64,000 nucleotides of DNA from a virus. The first letter of the stretch is position 1, and every line of letters starts with the position of its first letter. The stretch spans positions 32,001 to 96,000 of IMG/VR virus record IMGVR_UViG_3300044736_000016; one strand, 5' to 3'. Position numbers and translations under genes: made by a program. Positions 19,926 to 64,000 of this stretch are shown here, in pieces. The notes under the pieces were generated by a model that worked only from the letters and a program-made list of their open reading frames with translations, was not told the origin of the DNA and did no database searches.

Positions 19926-20611
19926 TCGTCTGCGCGACCACCCTTACGCATTTCGCCATGGGTCACCCAGATATCTGGGGAGCGTGGCTGTACAACGCCG
20001 AGGCGATGCAGGCCAGTCACCCTGACGTGCGGTTCTTCTGCGCCATCGAAACGGACGCTCGCGGGCTGGCGCCGTTCGCCCCGCTGATGTCGCGCCTAGA
20101 TGATGTCGGTGGGGAGTGGTGGACGTACCACCTTGACGACGGACGCAGCAAGGTGACCACGGAGAACCGCGGTCGCCATCTGGTATGCGGCCAGAACCTC
20201 GCCACCGACTACGCAACGTCCATCGGAGCGACGCACGTCGTGTTCCTCGCTGCAGACTGTGAGCCGCCACCTGACACCATCCCCAAGCTGCTGGAGGTGA
20301 ACTGGCCCATCGTCGGTGGTCACGTGCCGGGGTACTGCCTCGACGGCCCCGACGTGGTCGGCTATGACTTCCCGGTGAAGCGCCACATGGCGACCGCGGC
20401 GTTTGTCATGCTGCAACGGTCTATCTTCCGCTCGATCCGCTGGCGCTGGGATATCGACCTTGGCCTCACGGATGACCCATGCCTCTACTGGGATGCCAAA
20501 CGACTGTACGGAGTGGACACCTACGTCCGTCATGATGTCGTGGGGCGACACTACCCCGAGGCGCTATGTGGCATCGAGGAGCGCGGGTACGACCTGAGCG
20601 TGGCGCAGTGA
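19922..20611 (+). CDS. GT-A fold glycosyltransferase-like protein
   Basis: THVVFLAADC (degenerate DxD), PIVGG, TDDP, terminal H.YP. Confidence 0.65.
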   Translation: MIVCATTLTHFAMGHPDIWGAWLYNAEAMQASHPDVRFFCAIETDARGLAPFAPLMSRLDDVGGEWWTYHLDDGRSKVTTENRGRHLVCGQNLATDYATSIGATHVVFLAADCEPPPDTIPKLLEVNWPIVGGHVPGYCLDGPDVVGYDFPVKRHMATAAFVMLQRSIFRSIRWRWDIDLGLTDDPCLYWDAKRLYGVDTYVRHDVVGRHYPEALCGIEERGYDLSVAQ

Positions 20612-20725
20612 GACGCATCGACGCGCTGTTTCGAGCGTGGTTCTGGACACTGACCGTCATCACCGCTGCTGGCGTCGCGCTGGTGGTCTGTGCACTGCTC
20701 CAGTAATACTGTTCACTGCTGCGTT

Positions 20726-21238
20726 GTGAGACTCAACGTTGGGTGCGGGGAGTGGCGAGCCGAGGGCTGGCTGAACATCGACGTGGTGCAGAACGAGCAT
20801 GTAGCCTCCGACCTCGTGGCGTCGGTCACCGATCTGCCGACGCACGTCACGTGTCTCACCGCGGTGTATTGCGGCCATGTCCTCGAACACATCCCGCATG
20901 ACGCCGTCGTCCCTGCCCTGCGTGTGCTGAGGGAGCGGATGGTGCCGGGGGCGCCCATCATGTGCGTCGGGCCGGACGTACACCGCGCTGAGGCCATGTT
21001 CCGCGCTGGAGAGATCGATGAGCCGACGTGCCGATCCTGCCATGCGGAGACCCGACCGCCGCGGTGGGCTGGCGACGCCCATCACTGGGACTGCCACGAA
21101 GCCGAACTCGTCACGCTGCTCACGGAGGCGGGGTTTGTCGATGTGCATGCCGTGGACGTGGGCAGTCGCTACCTGCTGACCGAGTGGCCGCTGGTATCCG
21201 GCGTCGGCTGGCAGTGTGCCGTGGAGGGGCGACGGTGA
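20726..21238 (+). CDS. Class I SAM-dependent methyltransferase
   Basis: LNVGCG..GWLNID, HVLEHI, L.EAGF. Confidence 0.85.
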   Translation: MRLNVGCGEWRAEGWLNIDVVQNEHVASDLVASVTDLPTHVTCLTAVYCGHVLEHIPHDAVVPALRVLRERMVPGAPIMCVGPDVHRAEAMFRAGEIDEPTCRSCHAETRPPRWAGDAHHWDCHEAELVTLLTEAGFVDVHAVDVGSRYLLTEWPLVSGVGWQCAVEGRR

Positions 21239-21412
21239 GACGTCGCGCGGCTGACCGCAACTCAGACTACCACCCCTACCAGCTCTGGTGCTGTCGGTGA
21301 GCAACGGCTTCCTGCCCATCGGAGGAGACATGCCGCCGCGGCTGTTCTGGGCGGTCCTTGCCGTCATCGCCGTCGGCGTGGGGACCATGATCGTCTTGGC
21401 GATGCTTCACCT

Positions 21413-22294
21413 GTGAGGGCGCTGGTCACCGGGTCGGAGGGGTTCGTGGGTTCTCACTTCGTCATGCGCCTCCGAGCAGACGGGTGGGAGGTTTACGAGA
21501 TCGACGTCGCCTCCCGGACTAGGCCGATCGACGTTCGCGTCCTCAACCAGTGGCAGGAGGGCGGCACGCATTTCGAACTCGCGATCCACTGCGCCGCCGT
21601 GGTCGGTGGTCGCGCGACGATCGACGGCAGCCCGCTGGACGTGGCTGTCAACTTCGAACTCGACGCTGCATTCGCGCGCTGGTGCCTGCGGGTCCGTCCC
21701 GAACACGTCGTGTACTTCTCCAGCAGCGCCGCGTATCCGGTCTGGATGCAGGGCGACATCCGCCACGGACCTCTGCGGGAGGACGACATCAGCCTCGACC
21801 ACCTACAGCAGCCCGATGCCATCTACGGCCTAGCGAAGCTGGTCGGCGAGACGCTGATGCGCCACCTCGAGCGAGCGGGAGTGCGGACGCATGTGTTCCG
21901 GCCGTTCAGCGGCTGGGGCGCAGACCAGAGCATCGCGTATCCGATGCCAAGCCTCCTCGACCGCGCTCGACGCCGCGAGGATCCGTTCGTGGTCTGGGGG
22001 GACGGGCAGCAGGTGCGCGACTGGGTGCATGTGGATGACGTAGTCGGGGCAGTGATGGCTGCGGTCGACCAGGACGTCCGAGGCCCGCTCAACATCGGGT
22101 CAGGCGTACCGGTCAGCTTCGACGAACTCGCCGCCATGGTCTGCGCCGCCGCCGGCTACAGCCCGACCATCCAGCACCTCACCGATGCCCCCACAGGCGT
22201 CCGCTACCGGGTGTGTGATCCGACGCGGATGCTGGAGGTCTACCAGCCGAGGACAACGCTGGAGGAGGGCATCAGGCGGGCGCTGGCGGGGTAG
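21413..22294 (+). CDS. NAD-dependent epimerase/dehydratase
   Basis: VTGSEGFVG, SSSAAY, YGLAK, WGDGQQVRDWVHVDD. Confidence 0.92.
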   Translation: MRALVTGSEGFVGSHFVMRLRADGWEVYEIDVASRTRPIDVRVLNQWQEGGTHFELAIHCAAVVGGRATIDGSPLDVAVNFELDAAFARWCLRVRPEHVVYFSSSAAYPVWMQGDIRHGPLREDDISLDHLQQPDAIYGLAKLVGETLMRHLERAGVRTHVFRPFSGWGADQSIAYPMPSLLDRARRREDPFVVWGDGQQVRDWVHVDDVVGAVMAAVDQDVRGPLNIGSGVPVSFDELAAMVCAAAGYSPTIQHLTDAPTGVRYRVCDPTRMLEVYQPRTTLEEGIRRALAG

Positions 22295-22303
22295 AATCGG
22301 GCT

Positions 22304-22696
22304 GTGAGGCTACTCATCGCCGGTTCGCGGTATTGGGACGACCCCGTGCCCATCCGGCAGGCGTTGGAGCGTGCGCGGCCCACGGTCCTCATCCACGGGG
22401 CTGCGAGGGGAGCCGACAGCATCGCAGCACGGCTGGCGTACGCTATGGGCATCGAGGTGCTGGCCTTCCCCGCGGACTGGGACCGCCACGGCCGTGGCGC
22501 AGGGCCACTTCGCAACCAGCGCATGCTCGATGATGGACGACCAGAGTGGGCGATCCTGTTCGCTGACTACATCGCCACCTCATACGGTACGCGGGACATG
22601 CTCAGGCGGGCAGAGCGGTGCCCGGACGTGAAGCGGATCCACACATGCTCGCATGTCATCGGCTGGCGAACGGTGCGGGAGGCGGTAGCGGCGTGA
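22304..22696 (+). CDS. YspA/SLOG-family (DUF2493-like) protein, leaderless
   Basis: IAGSR, HGAARGAD, ADWDRHGRGAGPLRNQRML; TAGAAT at 22292-22297, 6 nt before GTG. Confidence 0.88.
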   Translation: MRLLIAGSRYWDDPVPIRQALERARPTVLIHGAARGADSIAARLAYAMGIEVLAFPADWDRHGRGAGPLRNQRMLDDGRPEWAILFADYIATSYGTRDMLRRAERCPDVKRIHTCSHVIGWRTVREAVAA

Positions 22697-58746: not shown

Positions 58747-59277
58747 TCAGCGTGCCATACCAAGATCGACGATGCGCCAACTACCCTGCAACGTACATGT
58801 CTGCATCTGAGCGACCACGCCCGCATCGTGGGAGGGAGGAGTGTTGATCGGCTCGTCGTGGATCGCGGTGACCGTCCACGGATGTCGCATGCCTGTCGCG
58901 TCCGTGTAGGTGACCACATCGCCGACGCCCAGCAGCATCACGGGGGTAAACACGCCGAGGTTGTGGCCGACGAAGTAGGTCTGATCCGTGACGCACGTGT
59001 CGATCGCAGCCGCGGTGTCGGTCAGTTCAGTCTTTCCCGAGCAGTCGCGGTAGAGACCCACCGTGGTGTCGAGCCCGAACGGTCCGCTCAGGTGGCTACG
59101 GATGGAGACGGTCACAGGAGCGGCGGCGGCGGCCTTCGGCGAGGCGAGGAGCGCACCGCCCGCGGCCAGCATGGCCACGCCCGCAAAGGCAACGGCCAGC
59201 GTCTTAGCGCAGCGGTGACGGCGCGCTGGCGGACCACTCCACAGAGGGGCGGGGTGGATCGGCGCCTGGGTCTCCAT
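58747..59277 (-). CDS. Sortase-like cysteine transpeptidase with an N-terminal membrane anchor/signal
   Basis: YFVGHN..F..L.VGD.V..QMQTC..WR (His/Cys/Arg triad order); hydrophobic N-terminus. Confidence 0.7.
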   Translation of the reverse strand: METQAPIHPAPLWSGPPARRHRCAKTLAVAFAGVAMLAAGGALLASPKAAAAAPVTVSIRSHLSGPFGLDTTVGLYRDCSGKTELTDTAAAIDTCVTDQTYFVGHNLGVFTPVMLLGVGDVVTYTDATGMRHPWTVTAIHDEPINTPPSHDAGVVAQMQTCTLQGSWRIVDLGMAR

Positions 59278-59413
59278 GCGTCCATGGTGCGCCCGATCGG
59301 CACTCAGGCTCAGGACGGGGGTGGGTCGGGGCAGTTCCGTCACGGGCGCGTCACGCCCAGTATCCATTGGCGACACGGGGGGGCATAGGCTAGGCTGGGC
59401 TAGCCTCGGCTCC

Positions 59414-59908
59414 ATGGCTGATGGTGGCGGCATGGTCGCGGCTCACACGGCGAAGCAGTCGCACGCCTATGTCATTCACTTCCCTCCGCATCCAGCGAGG
59501 ACCGACGACCCGCACTACAAGGACTTCGACCACTACCACCGGACGACCCGTGGCGCGGCGCGTTGCTACACGGGTGAGCGGGTCGGTTTTCAAGACTGCC
59601 GCGACGCTCAAGGCAACCCCTGCGCCATCGACGCTGCTGGTCAGCAGTCTGGCCTAGAGCTGCATCACGCCCACGTCGAGTTCGCGCTCCAGCAGGGCAT
59701 CAGCTTGGCGGCGCTCGAGCACGACTACCCCGGCATCAGCAACCCGGACGAGGTGGGGGCGTGGGTGGAGACAGCGGCTAACCTACGTTGGATCTGTGTA
59801 TTCCATCATCGCACCAATGCTGGCGGCGCGCATTCCGTATCACATTCGGATTGGGAAGGCAGTCTGTACGTTCGCGGGTTGACCGGAGACGTAGCGCCCA
59901 AGCCATGA
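59414..59908 (+). CDS. HNH-like His-rich protein, probably leaderless
   Basis: LELHHAHVE..NLRWICVFHHR..GAH; TAGCCT 7 nt upstream. Confidence 0.65.
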   Translation: MADGGGMVAAHTAKQSHAYVIHFPPHPARTDDPHYKDFDHYHRTTRGAARCYTGERVGFQDCRDAQGNPCAIDAAGQQSGLELHHAHVEFALQQGISLAALEHDYPGISNPDEVGAWVETAANLRWICVFHHRTNAGGAHSVSHSDWEGSLYVRGLTGDVAPKP

Positions 59909-59955
59909 GCGCCAAGATCGTCGCAGGCAGCGATGGTGGGCAGAGAGGGATCGGG

Positions 59956-60222
59956 ATGCCGCTCACGGATGACGAAGGCAGGGAGTTGCTCGCGACCGTA
60001 CGTACCCTGAGCGCTCGGCTCGATCAGTCCTTCGCCGACTTCAAGATGGAGGAGATCCCCAAGCGGCATAAGGCCAACCTTCCCTCCGTCCTCGACTGGT
60101 GGGATGGGCGTGCCGACCGAGGTGAGAAGTCGCGGTATCTCCTACCGCTCCTTGTGACGGCCATCTGCCCCGTCATCGGCGGTGTCATCGTGGCCATCAT
60201 CCTCAAGGCGCTCCACCTGTGA
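59956..60222 (+). CDS. Small protein with a C-terminal TM (lysis region)
   Basis: LPSVLDWW..TM; GAGGGA RBS. Confidence 0.6.
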   Translation: MPLTDDEGRELLATVRTLSARLDQSFADFKMEEIPKRHKANLPSVLDWWDGRADRGEKSRYLLPLLVTAICPVIGGVIVAIILKALHL

Positions 60223-60623
60223 TGAACAAGTCGCCACTGCGGGGTATGCCGTTCCTGCTCAAGGTCTATTACCACAAGATAGAACTGCTCTCGCTTTTGT
60301 TCACCATTCTGCTCGTCGTCGTCTTTTACATCTTGGCTCAGGAGGTGGTCGAGACGAGGCGGCAGGCTGGGGTCATCGCCGCCCAAGGTGTGCAGCAGAG
60401 GAAGGTGATGGAAGATGAGATCAGGTTCAACCGGTTCCTCATCGACAGAGAGACGGCGCGGACGGGGTCTGGCGGGCGGCAGGGACTCATCGACCAAGCC
60501 AACCTAGACAGGGCAGAGCTACGGCGGTTAGAGGCCGCGCTACGGGCCGCTGGGGTACGGCTGCCGCCCTCTGACGTGCTCGAGGGGCATCCTGCCAACC
60601 CGCCCCAACATGCACCGCCATGA
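60219..60623 (+). CDS. N-terminal TM, coiled-coil, Pro-tailed protein (lysis region)
   Basis: Single TM plus heptads. Confidence 0.65.
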   Translation: MMNKSPLRGMPFLLKVYYHKIELLSLLFTILLVVVFYILAQEVVETRRQAGVIAAQGVQQRKVMEDEIRFNRFLIDRETARTGSGGRQGLIDQANLDRAELRRLEAALRAAGVRLPPSDVLEGHPANPPQHAPP

Positions 60624-61834
60624 GTGCCCAAATCGTCGCTGACACTGACGGGCGCGTGATCTCGTGGGACGCTGAGGCAGCGCGGCTCTTGGGGTATCCG
60701 GCGGACGAGGTTGTCGGGCGTCTGCTCGGAGAGACGATCGTCCCCCCACAGCATCGTGACCAGTACGACCGTGGGCTGGATGACTTCCGAAAGACGGGCG
60801 CAGTGCGTTCGCTCGGGATGCGCTTGCAGGTTGATGCACTGCGCAAGGACGGCACCGTGATCCCGATCGACTTGCGGCTGACGAAACTCTCGGCCGATCC
60901 GCCAACTCTGCTCGTGCTCATCGACCCGCGAGCACCAGCCGACCAACCCGACCCATACACCGGCACCGAGCACCGTGACTACGCAGCAGACACCGAGGCA
61001 GCCCGTGCTGGTCGTGCTGAGGCGCTGGCTGGTGGTGTGACAGAGGTTGCGGCAGAGGTCGAGGCAGAGCGGGTGCAGCGCGCCAAGGGGCTCGCCGCTC
61101 AGTCTGAGCACAACGTTGCGGTGGCCGCCGCAGACGTGGAAGCGGAGCGACTGAGGATTGCTGCAAGTCTGGCCACGCAGTCCGCCCTGGGCGCTGCCTC
61201 GGCTGCTTCGATCTTGGAGGAGGAGCGCATCAAACGTGCAGTCGCCCTGGCTCTCGAATCCATCCGCGAGACGTCTGCCACGGCCGCCGGAGTTGAGGCA
61301 GAGCGGATCCACCGCGCCGAGACCTTGGCGGATCGTTCGGCACGGGGCGTGTCATCGGCAGCAGCAGACGTCGAGGAGGGCCGGGTAGAACGAGCCACGA
61401 AGCTCGCCGTCGAGGTGGAGCGTGCGAAGCTGAAAGCGGAGGGCGTGGCTGTGGCGGTGAACGGACTTACCACAGAGGTAACCGAACTACGAGGCGCCGC
61501 CGTGCGGATGGAAACGGCAGTACGGGAAATGAGCAGCCATCTTTCCGAGGTACTGAAGGCGACCGAAGCGCTGCACACCGGGTACGGCGTTGACGAGAGC
61601 ACCATGACGGACCGCTCGCGATTTCCATCCCTGCTGACATGGTGGGGGCGGATGACGACGGAGATCGTCCCAGGTACAGGCAAGACGCGGCTGGCGATAT
61701 TCGATGAGGTGATCGCCCAGCGCGCGAGCCGTATGCACGTCTCTACAAGCGGGCTCAAGGTGTTCGCCATCCTCACCCCATTCCTGTGCATCATCATCGG
61801 CGCAATTCTCACGTTTCTGCTCACTCGAAAATGA
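60620..61834 (+). CDS. PAS-domain, helical-repeat, C-terminal TM protein
   Basis: IVADTDGRVISWDAEAARLLGYPADEVVGR..ALRKDGTVIPIDLRL; six ~26-aa AADVEAER repeats; terminal TM. Confidence 0.85.
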   Translation: MSAQIVADTDGRVISWDAEAARLLGYPADEVVGRLLGETIVPPQHRDQYDRGLDDFRKTGAVRSLGMRLQVDALRKDGTVIPIDLRLTKLSADPPTLLVLIDPRAPADQPDPYTGTEHRDYAADTEAARAGRAEALAGGVTEVAAEVEAERVQRAKGLAAQSEHNVAVAAADVEAERLRIAASLATQSALGAASAASILEEERIKRAVALALESIRETSATAAGVEAERIHRAETLADRSARGVSSAAADVEEGRVERATKLAVEVERAKLKAEGVAVAVNGLTTEVTELRGAAVRMETAVREMSSHLSEVLKATEALHTGYGVDESTMTDRSRFPSLLTWWGRMTTEIVPGTGKTRLAIFDEVIAQRASRMHVSTSGLKVFAILTPFLCIIIGAILTFLLTRK

Positions 61835-62454
61835 CGACCTTACGCAGGATCTGGCAGTGGGCGTGGGGCTTGCGCCTCTATATCCTCGCTGCCTTGTTTG
61901 TAGCCCTAGTCATCGCCATGGCCGCATCGCTCGTGGGCTACGGGCAGCGACAGAACAGGCAGGATGCGCAGAGAGACCGAGACGAGGCTGCCGCGCGGGC
62001 GCAGATCGTCCGAATCACCGCAGACGAGGCGACGATCCAGACATTGGTCGACCAGAATCGAAGGTCAATCAACAACAACTCGGCCATGCTCGGGACCAGC
62101 AGGCTGGACATCAGCGATCTGCGCGCCATCATCGCGCAGACCAAGGACGAGGTCGTGCGCCAGCTCGATGGGCTCCCCAGCGTCGGGTTGCCTACGCCGA
62201 CTGACACCGTGGCTGCCAAGCTCATCGCGCTGCTGGACCGTCTGGACAAGCTCGACGCGATCGTGGCACGCCTCGATGCCCGCGTGGCCGCACTGGAGGC
62301 AGCCGCGTCCTCGGCTAGTGGCGAGCCCCGTCCCACGCCGACGGGAACGCCAGCACGCTCTCCACGGGCAGAGCCCGGACCACGCCCTGCGCCAGCGCCA
62401 GAGGAGCACTGCATCGTCCAGCATGTCGCTTTCTGTGCCAGCGCGAAGCCGTGA
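61831..62454 (+). CDS. N-terminal TM, long coiled-coil, Pro-rich protein with two terminal Cys (lysis accessory)
   Basis: Architecture and position. Confidence 0.65.
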   Translation: MTTLRRIWQWAWGLRLYILAALFVALVIAMAASLVGYGQRQNRQDAQRDRDEAAARAQIVRITADEATIQTLVDQNRRSINNNSAMLGTSRLDISDLRAIIAQTKDEVVRQLDGLPSVGLPTPTDTVAAKLIALLDRLDKLDAIVARLDARVAALEAAASSASGEPRPTPTGTPARSPRAEPGPRPAPAPEEHCIVQHVAFCASAKP

Positions 62455-62636
62455 ACATGAGAGAGCCCCGGTGGTTCGGCTATGCCGCTCTCGCGGGTGC
62501 TGCGGTTGTCCCGTAGCAGACGATCCTACCGAGGCTCCTTCGCCTCTCAGTATAGCGCACAGGTTGGGCATCTACGTGCCACGCCTAGCCTGCGTGGGTG
62601 GTGGCGTCAGTAGAGCGCTACGAGCGGAGGGCGGGC

Positions 62637-62879
62637 ATGGGGACACTGAATCCGAAGGTGAAGGGACAGACGATCGCGCACCTTGCCGTATGGACGGCGG
62701 CCACTCTTGGGATGGCATGGCTGCAGGGCGGCAAGGCGGCGATGCTCACGGCTGGGACTGGGCTTGTCGCTACGCTCATGGGGTTCGGTACGGGCTACCA
62801 GATCTCCTCGCCTGAGCCTGCAGCGAGTACGATCGCACTGCCGAGCGGCGGGTCGATCACCGAGGTTCCGCCGGGTTGA
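62637..62879 (+). CDS. Holin-like 2-TM protein
   Basis: LNPKV..two TMs..GY; GGAGG RBS. Confidence 0.65.
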   Translation: MGTLNPKVKGQTIAHLAVWTAATLGMAWLQGGKAAMLTAGTGLVATLMGFGTGYQISSPEPAASTIALPSGGSITEVPPG

Positions 62880-62887
62880 TGAGTACG

Positions 62888-63550
62888 CTACGAGCGTCGA
62901 CAGTCAGCGCACCACCTGAGCTTGCTGGTGCCCTGACCGTTGGGCTTGAACTTGGCGCCGCAGCCCTCGCAGAAATAGTCCGGATGCCGCCGACCGGAGG
63001 CATTGCGCTCGCGCAGGGCGCTGAGCCGTCCGTCCTCCTCCATATGGCAGCGTCGGCACCGCCAGACGACATTCGATGGAGAGTTGTCGAGGGTGTTTCC
63101 GTTCTTGTGGTGCCGATCGATGGCGCGTGCCCCGCAAGCACACACTGGCTCGACGTCTCGGTACAGCCTTCGTGCTCGCTGGTGTCCAGCGGGCATGGGA
63201 TGCACGGGTATTCGCTTGCGGGGACGCGGACCAGCCAGATAACAGGCGCGGCACTTGACAGCAGAACGGCTAGTGAGAGGAGAGCCGCAGGCGCAGAAAT
63301 GGTCTGCTGGCCTCCAGTAGGGTCTTTCGGGGGCCACGGGGCGGGCAGCCACGGCACAGGCGCGGCACCGATTAGCCTGCCGGGTGATCGGTTTCCCACA
63401 AGCACACCGACGTGTCGGGTGCTGGGCGGATCGTTCGGCCAGCCGCTGCCTACGCAACTCGTGGTAGCAGGCACTGCATCGTTCGGTTGTCAAGCGTCGG
63501 GTACGCAACGGATCACCACAGTCGATGCAGTGCCTGACTGTTCTAGCCAT
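62888..63550 (-). CDS. HNH endonuclease with multiple zinc ribbons, antisense and leaderless
   Basis: DRHHKNGNTLDNSPSNVVWRCRRCH; repeated CACG..CRAC; TGGTACCAT 6 nt before ATG 63550. Confidence 0.85.
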   Translation of the reverse strand: MARTVRHCIDCGDPLRTRRLTTERCSACYHELRRQRLAERSAQHPTRRCACGKPITRQANRCRACAVAARPVAPERPYWRPADHFCACGSPLTSRSAVKCRACYLAGPRPRKRIPVHPMPAGHQRARRLYRDVEPVCACGARAIDRHHKNGNTLDNSPSNVVWRCRRCHMEEDGRLSALRERNASGRRHPDYFCEGCGAKFKPNGQGTSKLRWCADCRRS

Positions 63551-63567
63551 GAAGGGATGGTACCACT

Positions 63568-64000
63568 TTGAGTGTGCTGCAACCCGCACTACTAACATGG
63601 CTGCAATTTTCAGAGCCTGGACCGGATCATTCCGAAAGTTGCGGGCAAAATGCAACCGCCTCGGCCCTCATCGGCGGTGGCCATCTTCCACCTAACGGCA
63701 ACGCTCCTATTACAGTGGATCGGTGGATGCAAGCGCAAGGCTATCCTGGCCTGTCGACCCAAGGCACGCAGACGAACTGGCTACAGGACGTCTTGGAACA
63801 CTTTGGCGGCACTCGTGGCCACGACCACGGTAACAACTTCGACGCCATTGTTCGCACGCTGGGCGCAGGTCGCTATGCCATCGTTCTGGTTGGCTCCGAT
63901 CACGTAGGGCATCCAGTACCCAACAACCAAGCCGTCACGGGGCACTGGGTCGCAGTCTATGGATACGACGGCACCAACTACCACATCGCCAACAGCGGCT
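63568..64000 (+). CDS. C39-like cysteine peptidase, endolysin candidate (3' end outside the window)
   Basis: Manual translation from TTG 63568/GTG 63574: WLQF..ESCGQNATA..GT..GHWVAVYGYDG..IANS; not in the ORF track. Confidence 0.75.
   Translation, partial: MSVLQPALLTWLQFSEPGPDHSESCGQNATASALIGGGHLPPNGNAPITVDRWMQAQGYPGLSTQGTQTNWLQDVLEHFGGTRGHDHGNNFDAIVRTLGAGRYAIVLVGSDHVGHPVPNNQAVTGHWVAVYGYDGTNYHIANSG

Follow-up and report, generated by a model that had tools for sequence, protein, structure and literature searches.

We describe here a run of four overlapping genes, G1 to G4, at positions 59956-62454 of a 64,000-nucleotide stretch of viral DNA (hereafter the window; positions 32001-96000 of IMG/VR record IMGVR_UViG_3300044736_000016). 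Each gene encodes a protein with exactly one strongly hydrophobic segment, and the third, G3, begins with a PAS domain that its metagenomic relatives retain. Our best explanation, put forward tentatively, is an accessory lysis module in which two outward-facing proteins resembling the actinophage lysis factor LysZ, G2 and G4, are each coupled to a tail-anchored partner, G1 and G3, with G3 adding PAS control. In such a module G2 and G4, with a short cytoplasmic N-terminus, one membrane helix, and a helical body and Pro-rich linker outside the membrane, would act like LysZ at the outer face of the cytoplasmic membrane and remove an envelope barrier persisting after endolysin action. G1 and G3 may be cytoplasm-facing partners, regulators or hole-formers, translationally coupled ahead of G2 and G4 and working via a common unit of PSxLxWW motif, helix and membrane segment. 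The PAS domain of G3, of FixL ancestry and carried at the tip of a helical stalk of variable length, could provide a dimerisation- or ligand-dependent control absent from G1. We read the four genes as a lysis module because they follow the tail genes in the same direction, just before a gene for a C39-like peptidase flanked by small membrane proteins, and because of their LysZ-type architecture, their class IIIb holin topology and their conserved and linked relatives. The PAS-bearing partner hints at signal-controlled lysis; it does not show it.

A preliminary description of this DNA had recognised two tandem pairs, in each of which a protein with a C-terminal membrane segment precedes one with an N-terminal segment and a Pro-rich tail. 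This arrangement was borne out by Kyte-Doolittle hydropathy with a 19-residue window, which placed the single segments (Table 1) at the ends described. In G1 and G3, neither of which has a signal peptide, 64 and 382 residues precede the segment and 5 and 3 follow it. Topologies are predictions from hydropathy and charge. A charge of +4 in G2 and +3 in G4 before the membrane helix, against 0 and about +1 after it, favours an N-in orientation for both, and the two invariant Cys of G4, like its Pro-rich linker, are in keeping with a C-terminus outside the cytoplasm. The motif PS(V/L)LxWW, said to precede the membrane segment in the first gene of each pair, was likewise found, as PSVLDWW in G1 and PSLLTWW in G3. 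Pro-rich tails are present in both G2 and G4; G2 itself ends inside its tail, which is long in its relative P0037. AlphaFold2 models, which rest on shallow alignments of 10-12 rows, gave G4 helices at residues 3-86, 94-113 and 127-163, a disordered Pro-rich linker (pLDDT <50) and a C-terminal motif, modelled as a hairpin at low confidence, whose residues C194 and C202 are invariant between G4 and its 12 homologues. Foldseek with the G4 model against BFVD returned nothing at E <1, and an ESM Atlas search with G4 gave sub-threshold rows only.

The identity of the N-terminal domain of G3 is well supported. The PAS domain proposed earlier was matched by PF00989 (E 2.3e-12, 47.3 bits against a cut-off of 22.6) and by TIGR00229 (E 4.5e-10, 39.7 bits against a threshold of 22.9). 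AlphaFold2 modelled residues 3-103 as a PAS-type alpha/beta fold (pLDDT 70-88), with strands 3-8, 12-16, 69-74, 80-91 and 96-103 in a five-stranded antiparallel sheet and helices between them, followed by long helices (116-322) and the terminal membrane helix. The Foldseek matches of this model in BFVD were PAS proteins, from which it is also evident that other phage PAS proteins exist. As previously stated, no kinase, phosphodiesterase or other output domain was found in G3; the PAS families were its only matches. The nearest solved relative of the domain was the FixL haem domain 1D06 (E 1.1e-11), followed by other FixL structures and E. coli DosP, and NCBIfam agreed on this kinship with partial matches to DosP and FixL. 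With the FixL and DosP haem-PAS domains (PDB 1D06, 1XJ4, 1S66) it is collinear over about 88 residues. Unlike FixL and DosP, G3 joins the domain to a stalk of helical repeats and an anchor in the membrane.

The PAS fusion recurs in 11 other full-length metagenomic relatives of G3 and is thus no one-off degenerate capture. All have the PAS domain at the start and the anchor at the end, and their sizes range from 286 to 405 aa because their repeat numbers differ. Among distant members no part is conserved better than the PAS domain, which is 62-73% identical to that of the window, compared with 28-48% for the C-terminal parts. For G4, 12 metagenomic relatives were found and for G1 eight homologues with 69-92% identity and an invariant core, whereas G2 had only two homologue clusters among 1.84 billion protein representatives. 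Linkage of the families was inferred from identical sizes of the longest contigs across the independent searches with G1 to G4. Contig sizes of 116,225 and 7,837 bp were common to relatives of G1, G3 and G4, and one of 75,033 bp to those of G1 and G4. G3 and G4 relatives had 8,919, 3,541 and 2,696 bp in common, G1 and G3 relatives 5,000 bp, and G2 and G3 relatives 2,087 bp. We take these coincidences as linkage. In the 2,087-bp case, the G2 relative P0036 is 73% identical to G2 and the G3 relative P0012, which keeps the FixL-type His, only 40% identical to G3; this suggests different histories of the two genes, that is mosaicism. Scans of IMG/VR with G3, the DUF5047 tail protein, the peptidase and the G4 and G1 families found nothing related, nor did scans of one genome per GTDB species; in the INPHARED phage genomes, neither the DNA nor G3, G4 or the isolated PAS domain found a match. 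A metagenome contig scan on generic PAS patterns returned unrelated bacterial PAS proteins only, for example a multi-PAS GGDEF protein.

G1 and G3 are probable paralogues, as judged from two kinds of comparison. The families aligned in hhalign with a probability of 76% (E 2.3e-5) at the PSxLxWW motif and the membrane segment. At the DNA level, a relic of the G3 start context (GCC-ATGA-G.GCC...ATCGTCGC) lies upstream of G1. The best local alignment of the two loci pairs this relic with 60617-60639 at a score of 31, compared with 21.6 +/- 2.2 and a maximum of 28 in 300 shuffles. Relic and G3 start both overlap the preceding stop codon as ATGA, and the translation of the relic, MSAKIVAGSDG, resembles the first PAS strand of G3, MSAQIVADTDG. 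G1 appears to be derived from a PAS-bearing ancestor via an internal deletion. An alternative G1 start at 59905, overlapping the upstream stop and giving 105 aa, was disfavoured; the start at 59956 is favoured because all eight homologues were called at 87-90 aa.

Between the PAS domain and the anchor of G3 lies an array of Ala/Glu/Arg-rich repeats that are predicted to be helical. VEAER-type motifs recur every 26 residues exactly, at 147, 173, 199, 225 and 251, and a partial unit lies at 125; the six helical repeats of about 26 aa reported before are thus five full units and a partial one. BLOSUM autocorrelation reached 0.76 at offset 26 and 0.97 at offset 52, against a shuffle maximum of 0.37 (n=500). 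A coiled coil was not demonstrated: helices are predicted, but their hydrophobic periodicity is not significant against shuffles. In the G3 repeats the period of 3.70 residues did not rise above shuffles, and we make no claim on the type of bundle.

The preliminary description had inferred a sensor-gated holin/antiholin or membrane-disruption complex that links lysis timing to host physiology. In its strong form this would make G1 and G3 a holin/antiholin pair, or have them gate a complex formed with G2 and G4 that disrupts the membrane, and the PAS domain would bind a cytoplasmic oxygen, redox or metabolite signal. We consider this unlikely, although several observations speak for it. Constraint on the PAS domain exceeds that on the remainder of G3, and the nearest relatives of the domain are oxygen sensors. 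G1 would be a PAS-less paralogue with the same membrane unit, as in holin/antiholin pairs that differ only by a cytoplasmic extension, and a class IIIb holin with a cytoplasmic regulatory domain offers a precedent (PMC12894885). Hole formation by any of the four proteins, however, is hypothetical. The haem site provides a further objection. When the haem contacts of BjFixL were mapped onto the alignment of the G3 PAS domain with 1D06, the proximal His and three further residues, which contact the haem propionates and O2, were all replaced. In what we take to be the BjFixL numbering, H200, the proximal ligand on the F-alpha helix, corresponds to Tyr49 in G3, to Leu in the relative P0007 and to His only in the three divergent relatives P0010-P0012, a retention that favours a sensor. 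R206 corresponds to D55 (D in the relatives, or N in P0008 and P0009), H214 to R63 (R in the relatives, P in P0010-P0012) and R220 to L69 (L in the relatives, M in P0010). No known cofactor site is recognisable, because the PAS domain of the G3 family contains no invariant His or Cys. Judged from these alignments, the domain is of the haem-PAS (FixL) lineage, but is not a canonical haem sensor. In the same family, residues 45 and 49, one helical turn apart, show His and Tyr/Phe swapping places: members with Tyr49 carry His45, those with His49 carry Tyr or Phe45, and P0007 combines Tyr45 with Leu49. A shifted ligand position is conceivable.

The stalk, too, speaks against gating of this kind. 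Across the G3 relatives the number of repeats varies from about 1 to 6 by single 26-residue units. Such steps would lengthen or shorten the stalk that links the PAS domain to the membrane and would also shift its helical phase, which, unlike what is seen in phase-critical sensor linkers, argues against a rigid, phase-dependent signalling helix. The stalk would fit a spacer carrying a dimerising or recruiting domain better than a signalling helix.

Our preferred reading, an accessory lysis module, draws mainly on LysZ, which was described in corynephages and mycobacteriophages and recognised across diverse actinophages from its position and its architecture (McKitterick, Lyerly and Bernhardt, PNAS 2026, PMC13123898). 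LysZ often lies downstream of the four-helix membrane protein LysY, and it is needed against a lipomannan/lipoarabinomannan barrier (PMC13123898). G2 and G4 resemble it in having a single membrane helix close to the N-terminus, a long alpha-helical body (modelled as helices for G4), a flexible Pro-rich linker in G4 or a Pro-rich tail in G2, and genes that each directly follow another membrane-protein gene. The LysZ family is itself defined by architecture, its sequences being very diverse and its alleles nevertheless complementing one another (PMC13123898), and the likeness of G2 and G4 to it is likewise architectural, with no detectable similarity in sequence. The position of G2 and G4 fits, but the nearby endolysin candidate is only a sub-threshold C39-like peptidase. 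Differences are the very short N-terminal disordered domain of G2 and G4, the presence of two copies, and an upstream partner that is a single-pass tail-anchored protein in place of the four-helix LysY.

The tail-anchored proteins have a counterpart in gp142 of phiKZ, the protein that defines class IIIb holins. It crosses the membrane once, N-in/C-out, its large cytoplasmic domain is the regulatory site, and its regulator gp143 is a separate soluble protein (Manohar et al., Sci Rep 2026, PMC12894885). G1 and G3 are predicted to share the N-in/C-out orientation, the cytoplasmic N-domain and the minimal external tail, a comparison by topology alone. In contrast to gp142, which belongs to another host group, the regulatory element of G3 would be built in as the PAS domain. 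A further parallel is the holin-like pair LysF1a/LysF1b of cluster F1 mycobacteriophages, which together are required for lysis to proceed efficiently (Pollenz et al., PLoS One 2026, PMC13056207). Here as well, several small membrane proteins are encoded by ATGA-coupled genes in an actinophage lysis cassette, and one member combines an extended helical domain with a lone membrane domain at its N-terminus. LysF1b, however, is predicted to be N-out/C-in with a highly charged cytoplasmic helix, and the pair has no tail-anchored member and no PAS domain. A phage-encoded PAS sensor that influences the decision to lyse is known in VqmA of vibriophage VP882 (PMC8284805); it is a soluble transcription factor at the lysogeny-lysis switch and not a membrane protein of a late lysis region. 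The preliminary description knew of no described example. LysZ and the class IIIb holin match the architecture, so this now applies to the PAS fusion alone: in the literature searched we found no paper placing a PAS domain in a phage lysis cassette. What is new here is probably the PAS-bearing component in an otherwise known kind of accessory lysis module.

Several points weigh against a lysis module of the LysZ kind. G4 ends in a two-Cys hairpin and not in a C-terminal helix, and G2, which has no C-terminal element, fits in shortened form. No sequence similarity was seen to a LysZ-like candidate of Mycobacterium phage Corndog, gp75, which was picked by position (hhalign probability about 1%). 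The lipoglycan barrier on which G2 and G4 would act is presumed, the assignment of the host being only probable, and the genes of the region all fall short of the curated thresholds for holins, endolysins and spanins. The duplicated module claimed at the outset is probable only for G1 and G3. Paralogy of G2 and G4, which we keep as possible, could not be demonstrated (BLASTP E 0.14; hhalign probabilities of 8% and 18%), and their likeness is one of architecture without demonstrable sequence homology.

In Corndog, the region 20516-22520 after gp70 encodes the small proteins gp71 and gp72, the multi-helix membrane proteins gp73 and gp74 and the 146-aa, N-anchored, helical gp75; gp69 and gp70, judging by position, are presumably the lysin A and lysin B genes. 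The proteins gp71-gp75 are annotated as hypothetical, and their order fits the published LysY/LysZ layout.

Table 1. Features of the G1-G4 locus and its surroundings (window positions unless another coordinate is given; scores are Kyte-Doolittle)
Feature	Position	Strand	Description
G1	59956-60222	+	88 aa, tail-anchored; junction with G2 is GTGA
G1 PSVLDWW motif	60082-60102	+	ahead of membrane segment
G1 membrane segment	60148-60204	+	residues 65-83 of 88; score 2.83
G2	60219-60623	+	134 aa, N-anchored; helical body, short Pro-rich tail; junction with G3 is ATGA
G2 membrane segment	60279-60335	+	residues 21-39 of 134; score 2.74
G3	60620-61834	+	404 aa; PAS domain, repeat array, tail anchor; junction with G4 is ATGA
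G3 PAS domain	60626-60931	+	residues 3-104; PF00989
G3 26-residue repeats	60971-61438	+	residues 118-273; predicted helical
G3 PSLLTWW motif	61625-61645	+	start of unit common to G1
G3 unit common to G1	61625-61822	+	motif, conserved segment, membrane helix
G3 membrane segment	61766-61822	+	residues 383-401 of 404; score 2.62
G4	61831-62454	+	207 aa, N-anchored
G4 membrane segment	61882-61938	+	residues 18-36 of 207; score 2.69
G4 Pro-rich linker	62320-62406	+	residues 164-192
G4 C-terminal motif	62410-62436	+	contains C194 and C202
Relic of G3 start context	59902-59924	+	51 nt upstream of G1 start
Sortase-like gene	58747-59433	-	antisense
164-aa ORF	59414-59908	+	directly upstream of G1
80-aa protein	62637-62879	+	182 nt past G4; two weakly hydrophobic Gly/Ala/Thr-rich segments
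ORF	62876-63571	+	probably spurious
HNH-type endonuclease	62888-63550	-	about five CxxC pairs; weak HNH matches; between 80-aa and peptidase genes
C39-like cysteine peptidase	63568-64000, past window end to genome C1:96347	+	259 aa; sub-threshold Pfam
130-aa Gly/Ala-rich protein	L002:6359-6751, just past window end	+	follows peptidase gene; several weakly hydrophobic segments

The virus record comprises 109,768 bp with direct terminal repeats and is rated complete. The G+C content is about 65%. The source is most likely an uncultured high-GC siphophage and its host probably an actinobacterium; no tRNA genes were found in the 64-kb window. The structural genes on the + strand encode a Mu-type protease/scaffold, an E-type major capsid protein, a GDSL-esterase-bearing virion protein and a DUF5047 tail protein. 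G1 to G4 lie directly 3' of the tail genes, of which the DUF5047 gene is one, in the direction of the late structural genes, and are presumably expressed late themselves. No promoter-like or terminator-like site around them rose above shuffle expectation.

Of the earlier claim that the four coupled genes lie upstream of a holin, the coupling was upheld by the gene overlaps, but the holin is the unverified 80-aa protein of Table 1, which has no Pfam, PHROG or NCBIfam match and whose hydropathy peaks at 1.3. The HNH-type gene that follows looks like a homing-endonuclease insertion splitting the putative lysis cassette. Beyond it, the C39-like protein is a probable endolysin: it matches Pfam Peptidase_C39_2 at E 0.003-0.007, below the cut-off, and has a Cys motif (SCGQNA) and a His motif (GHWVAVYGYD) in the expected order. 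Its nearest ESM Atlas clusters are all C39_2, with a best score of 0.87, which we regard as a lead only. "Lysin A, protease C39 domain" is an annotation in use for Gordonia phages (PMC12821328). The 130-aa protein after it is a second holin-like candidate without a family match, and its gene is followed by leftward regulatory genes. No Amidase_2, GH25 or M23 endolysin domain was detected elsewhere in the genome, in a search that is insensitive because it also missed the weak C39 match. The label lysis cassette is therefore plausible but soft, with the position near a C39-like peptidase in its favour, and holin and endolysin calls under the family thresholds against it.

An alternative is a role outside lysis, with G1 to G4 as membrane proteins of superinfection exclusion, of envelope or receptor remodelling or of membrane assembly that happen to lie between tail and lysis genes. 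Exclusion systems, too, typically include small type II membrane proteins whose tails lie outside the cell. The region is mosaic, with two HNH-type genes and an antisense sortase-like gene, moron-type insertions occur here, and no lysis families were matched. We nevertheless judge such a role quite improbable. G1 to G4 are co-oriented and coupled in the late structural operon, where no promoter- or terminator-like site stands out, whereas exclusion genes are usually expressed separately, and their architecture matches actinophage cassette proteins needed for lysis (PMC13123898, PMC13056207). Very improbable is a spanin-like, envelope-spanning fusion machine in which G4, and with it G2, would supply the inner-membrane half and the host would possess an outer mycomembrane: the type II topology, long helices and conserved Cys of G4 recall Rz-type i-spanins, and there is a faint PHROG match to an Rz-like spanin family (E 0.087) and a structural one to a DUF2514 cluster (TM 0.46/0.57), but both are below significance and at chance level, G1 and G3 face the cytoplasm, and an o-spanin partner is missing because no lipobox-bearing ORF of at least 40 aa, embedded or adjacent, exists on the + strand of 59400-64000.

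If an accessory lysis module with PAS control is indeed what these genes encode, a conserved sensor-type domain on a membrane protein of the lysis region would be a direct physiological input to lysis timing. Lysis timing decides phage fitness, and the inputs known to act on it are the concentration of holin, the energisation of the membrane and, in T-even phages, superinfection. That G3 is a lysis-cassette protein whose built-in PAS domain reads oxygen, redox state or a metabolite as a host signal and thereby times the membrane breach, with the PAS-less G1 as an unregulated or antagonistic partner, seems doubtful to us at present. The module would further extend LysZ-like factors and class IIIb holins, both described only in 2026, to uncultured phages, and would add a new type of partner, a tail-anchored protein that replaces LysY. 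Even if the PAS domain merely dimerises, G1 without and G3 with this domain would constitute a natural comparison of the effect of a cytoplasmic domain.

Some minor observations concern the neighbouring reading frames. The antisense sortase-like gene encodes one strong membrane segment and matches Pfam Sortase at E 0.2 only. G3 or G1 as substrates of its product were rejected, having neither an LPxTG-type motif nor a signal peptide; the sorting motif is in fact absent from all of G1 to G4. The + strand ORF overlapping the HNH-type gene has no match and is probably a shadow of that gene on the opposite strand. The 164-aa ORF, for which Pfam, PHROG and NCBIfam gave no match, contains His-rich HNH-like motifs (LELHH..., ...VFHHR), and its stop codon overlaps the relic ATG at 59905.

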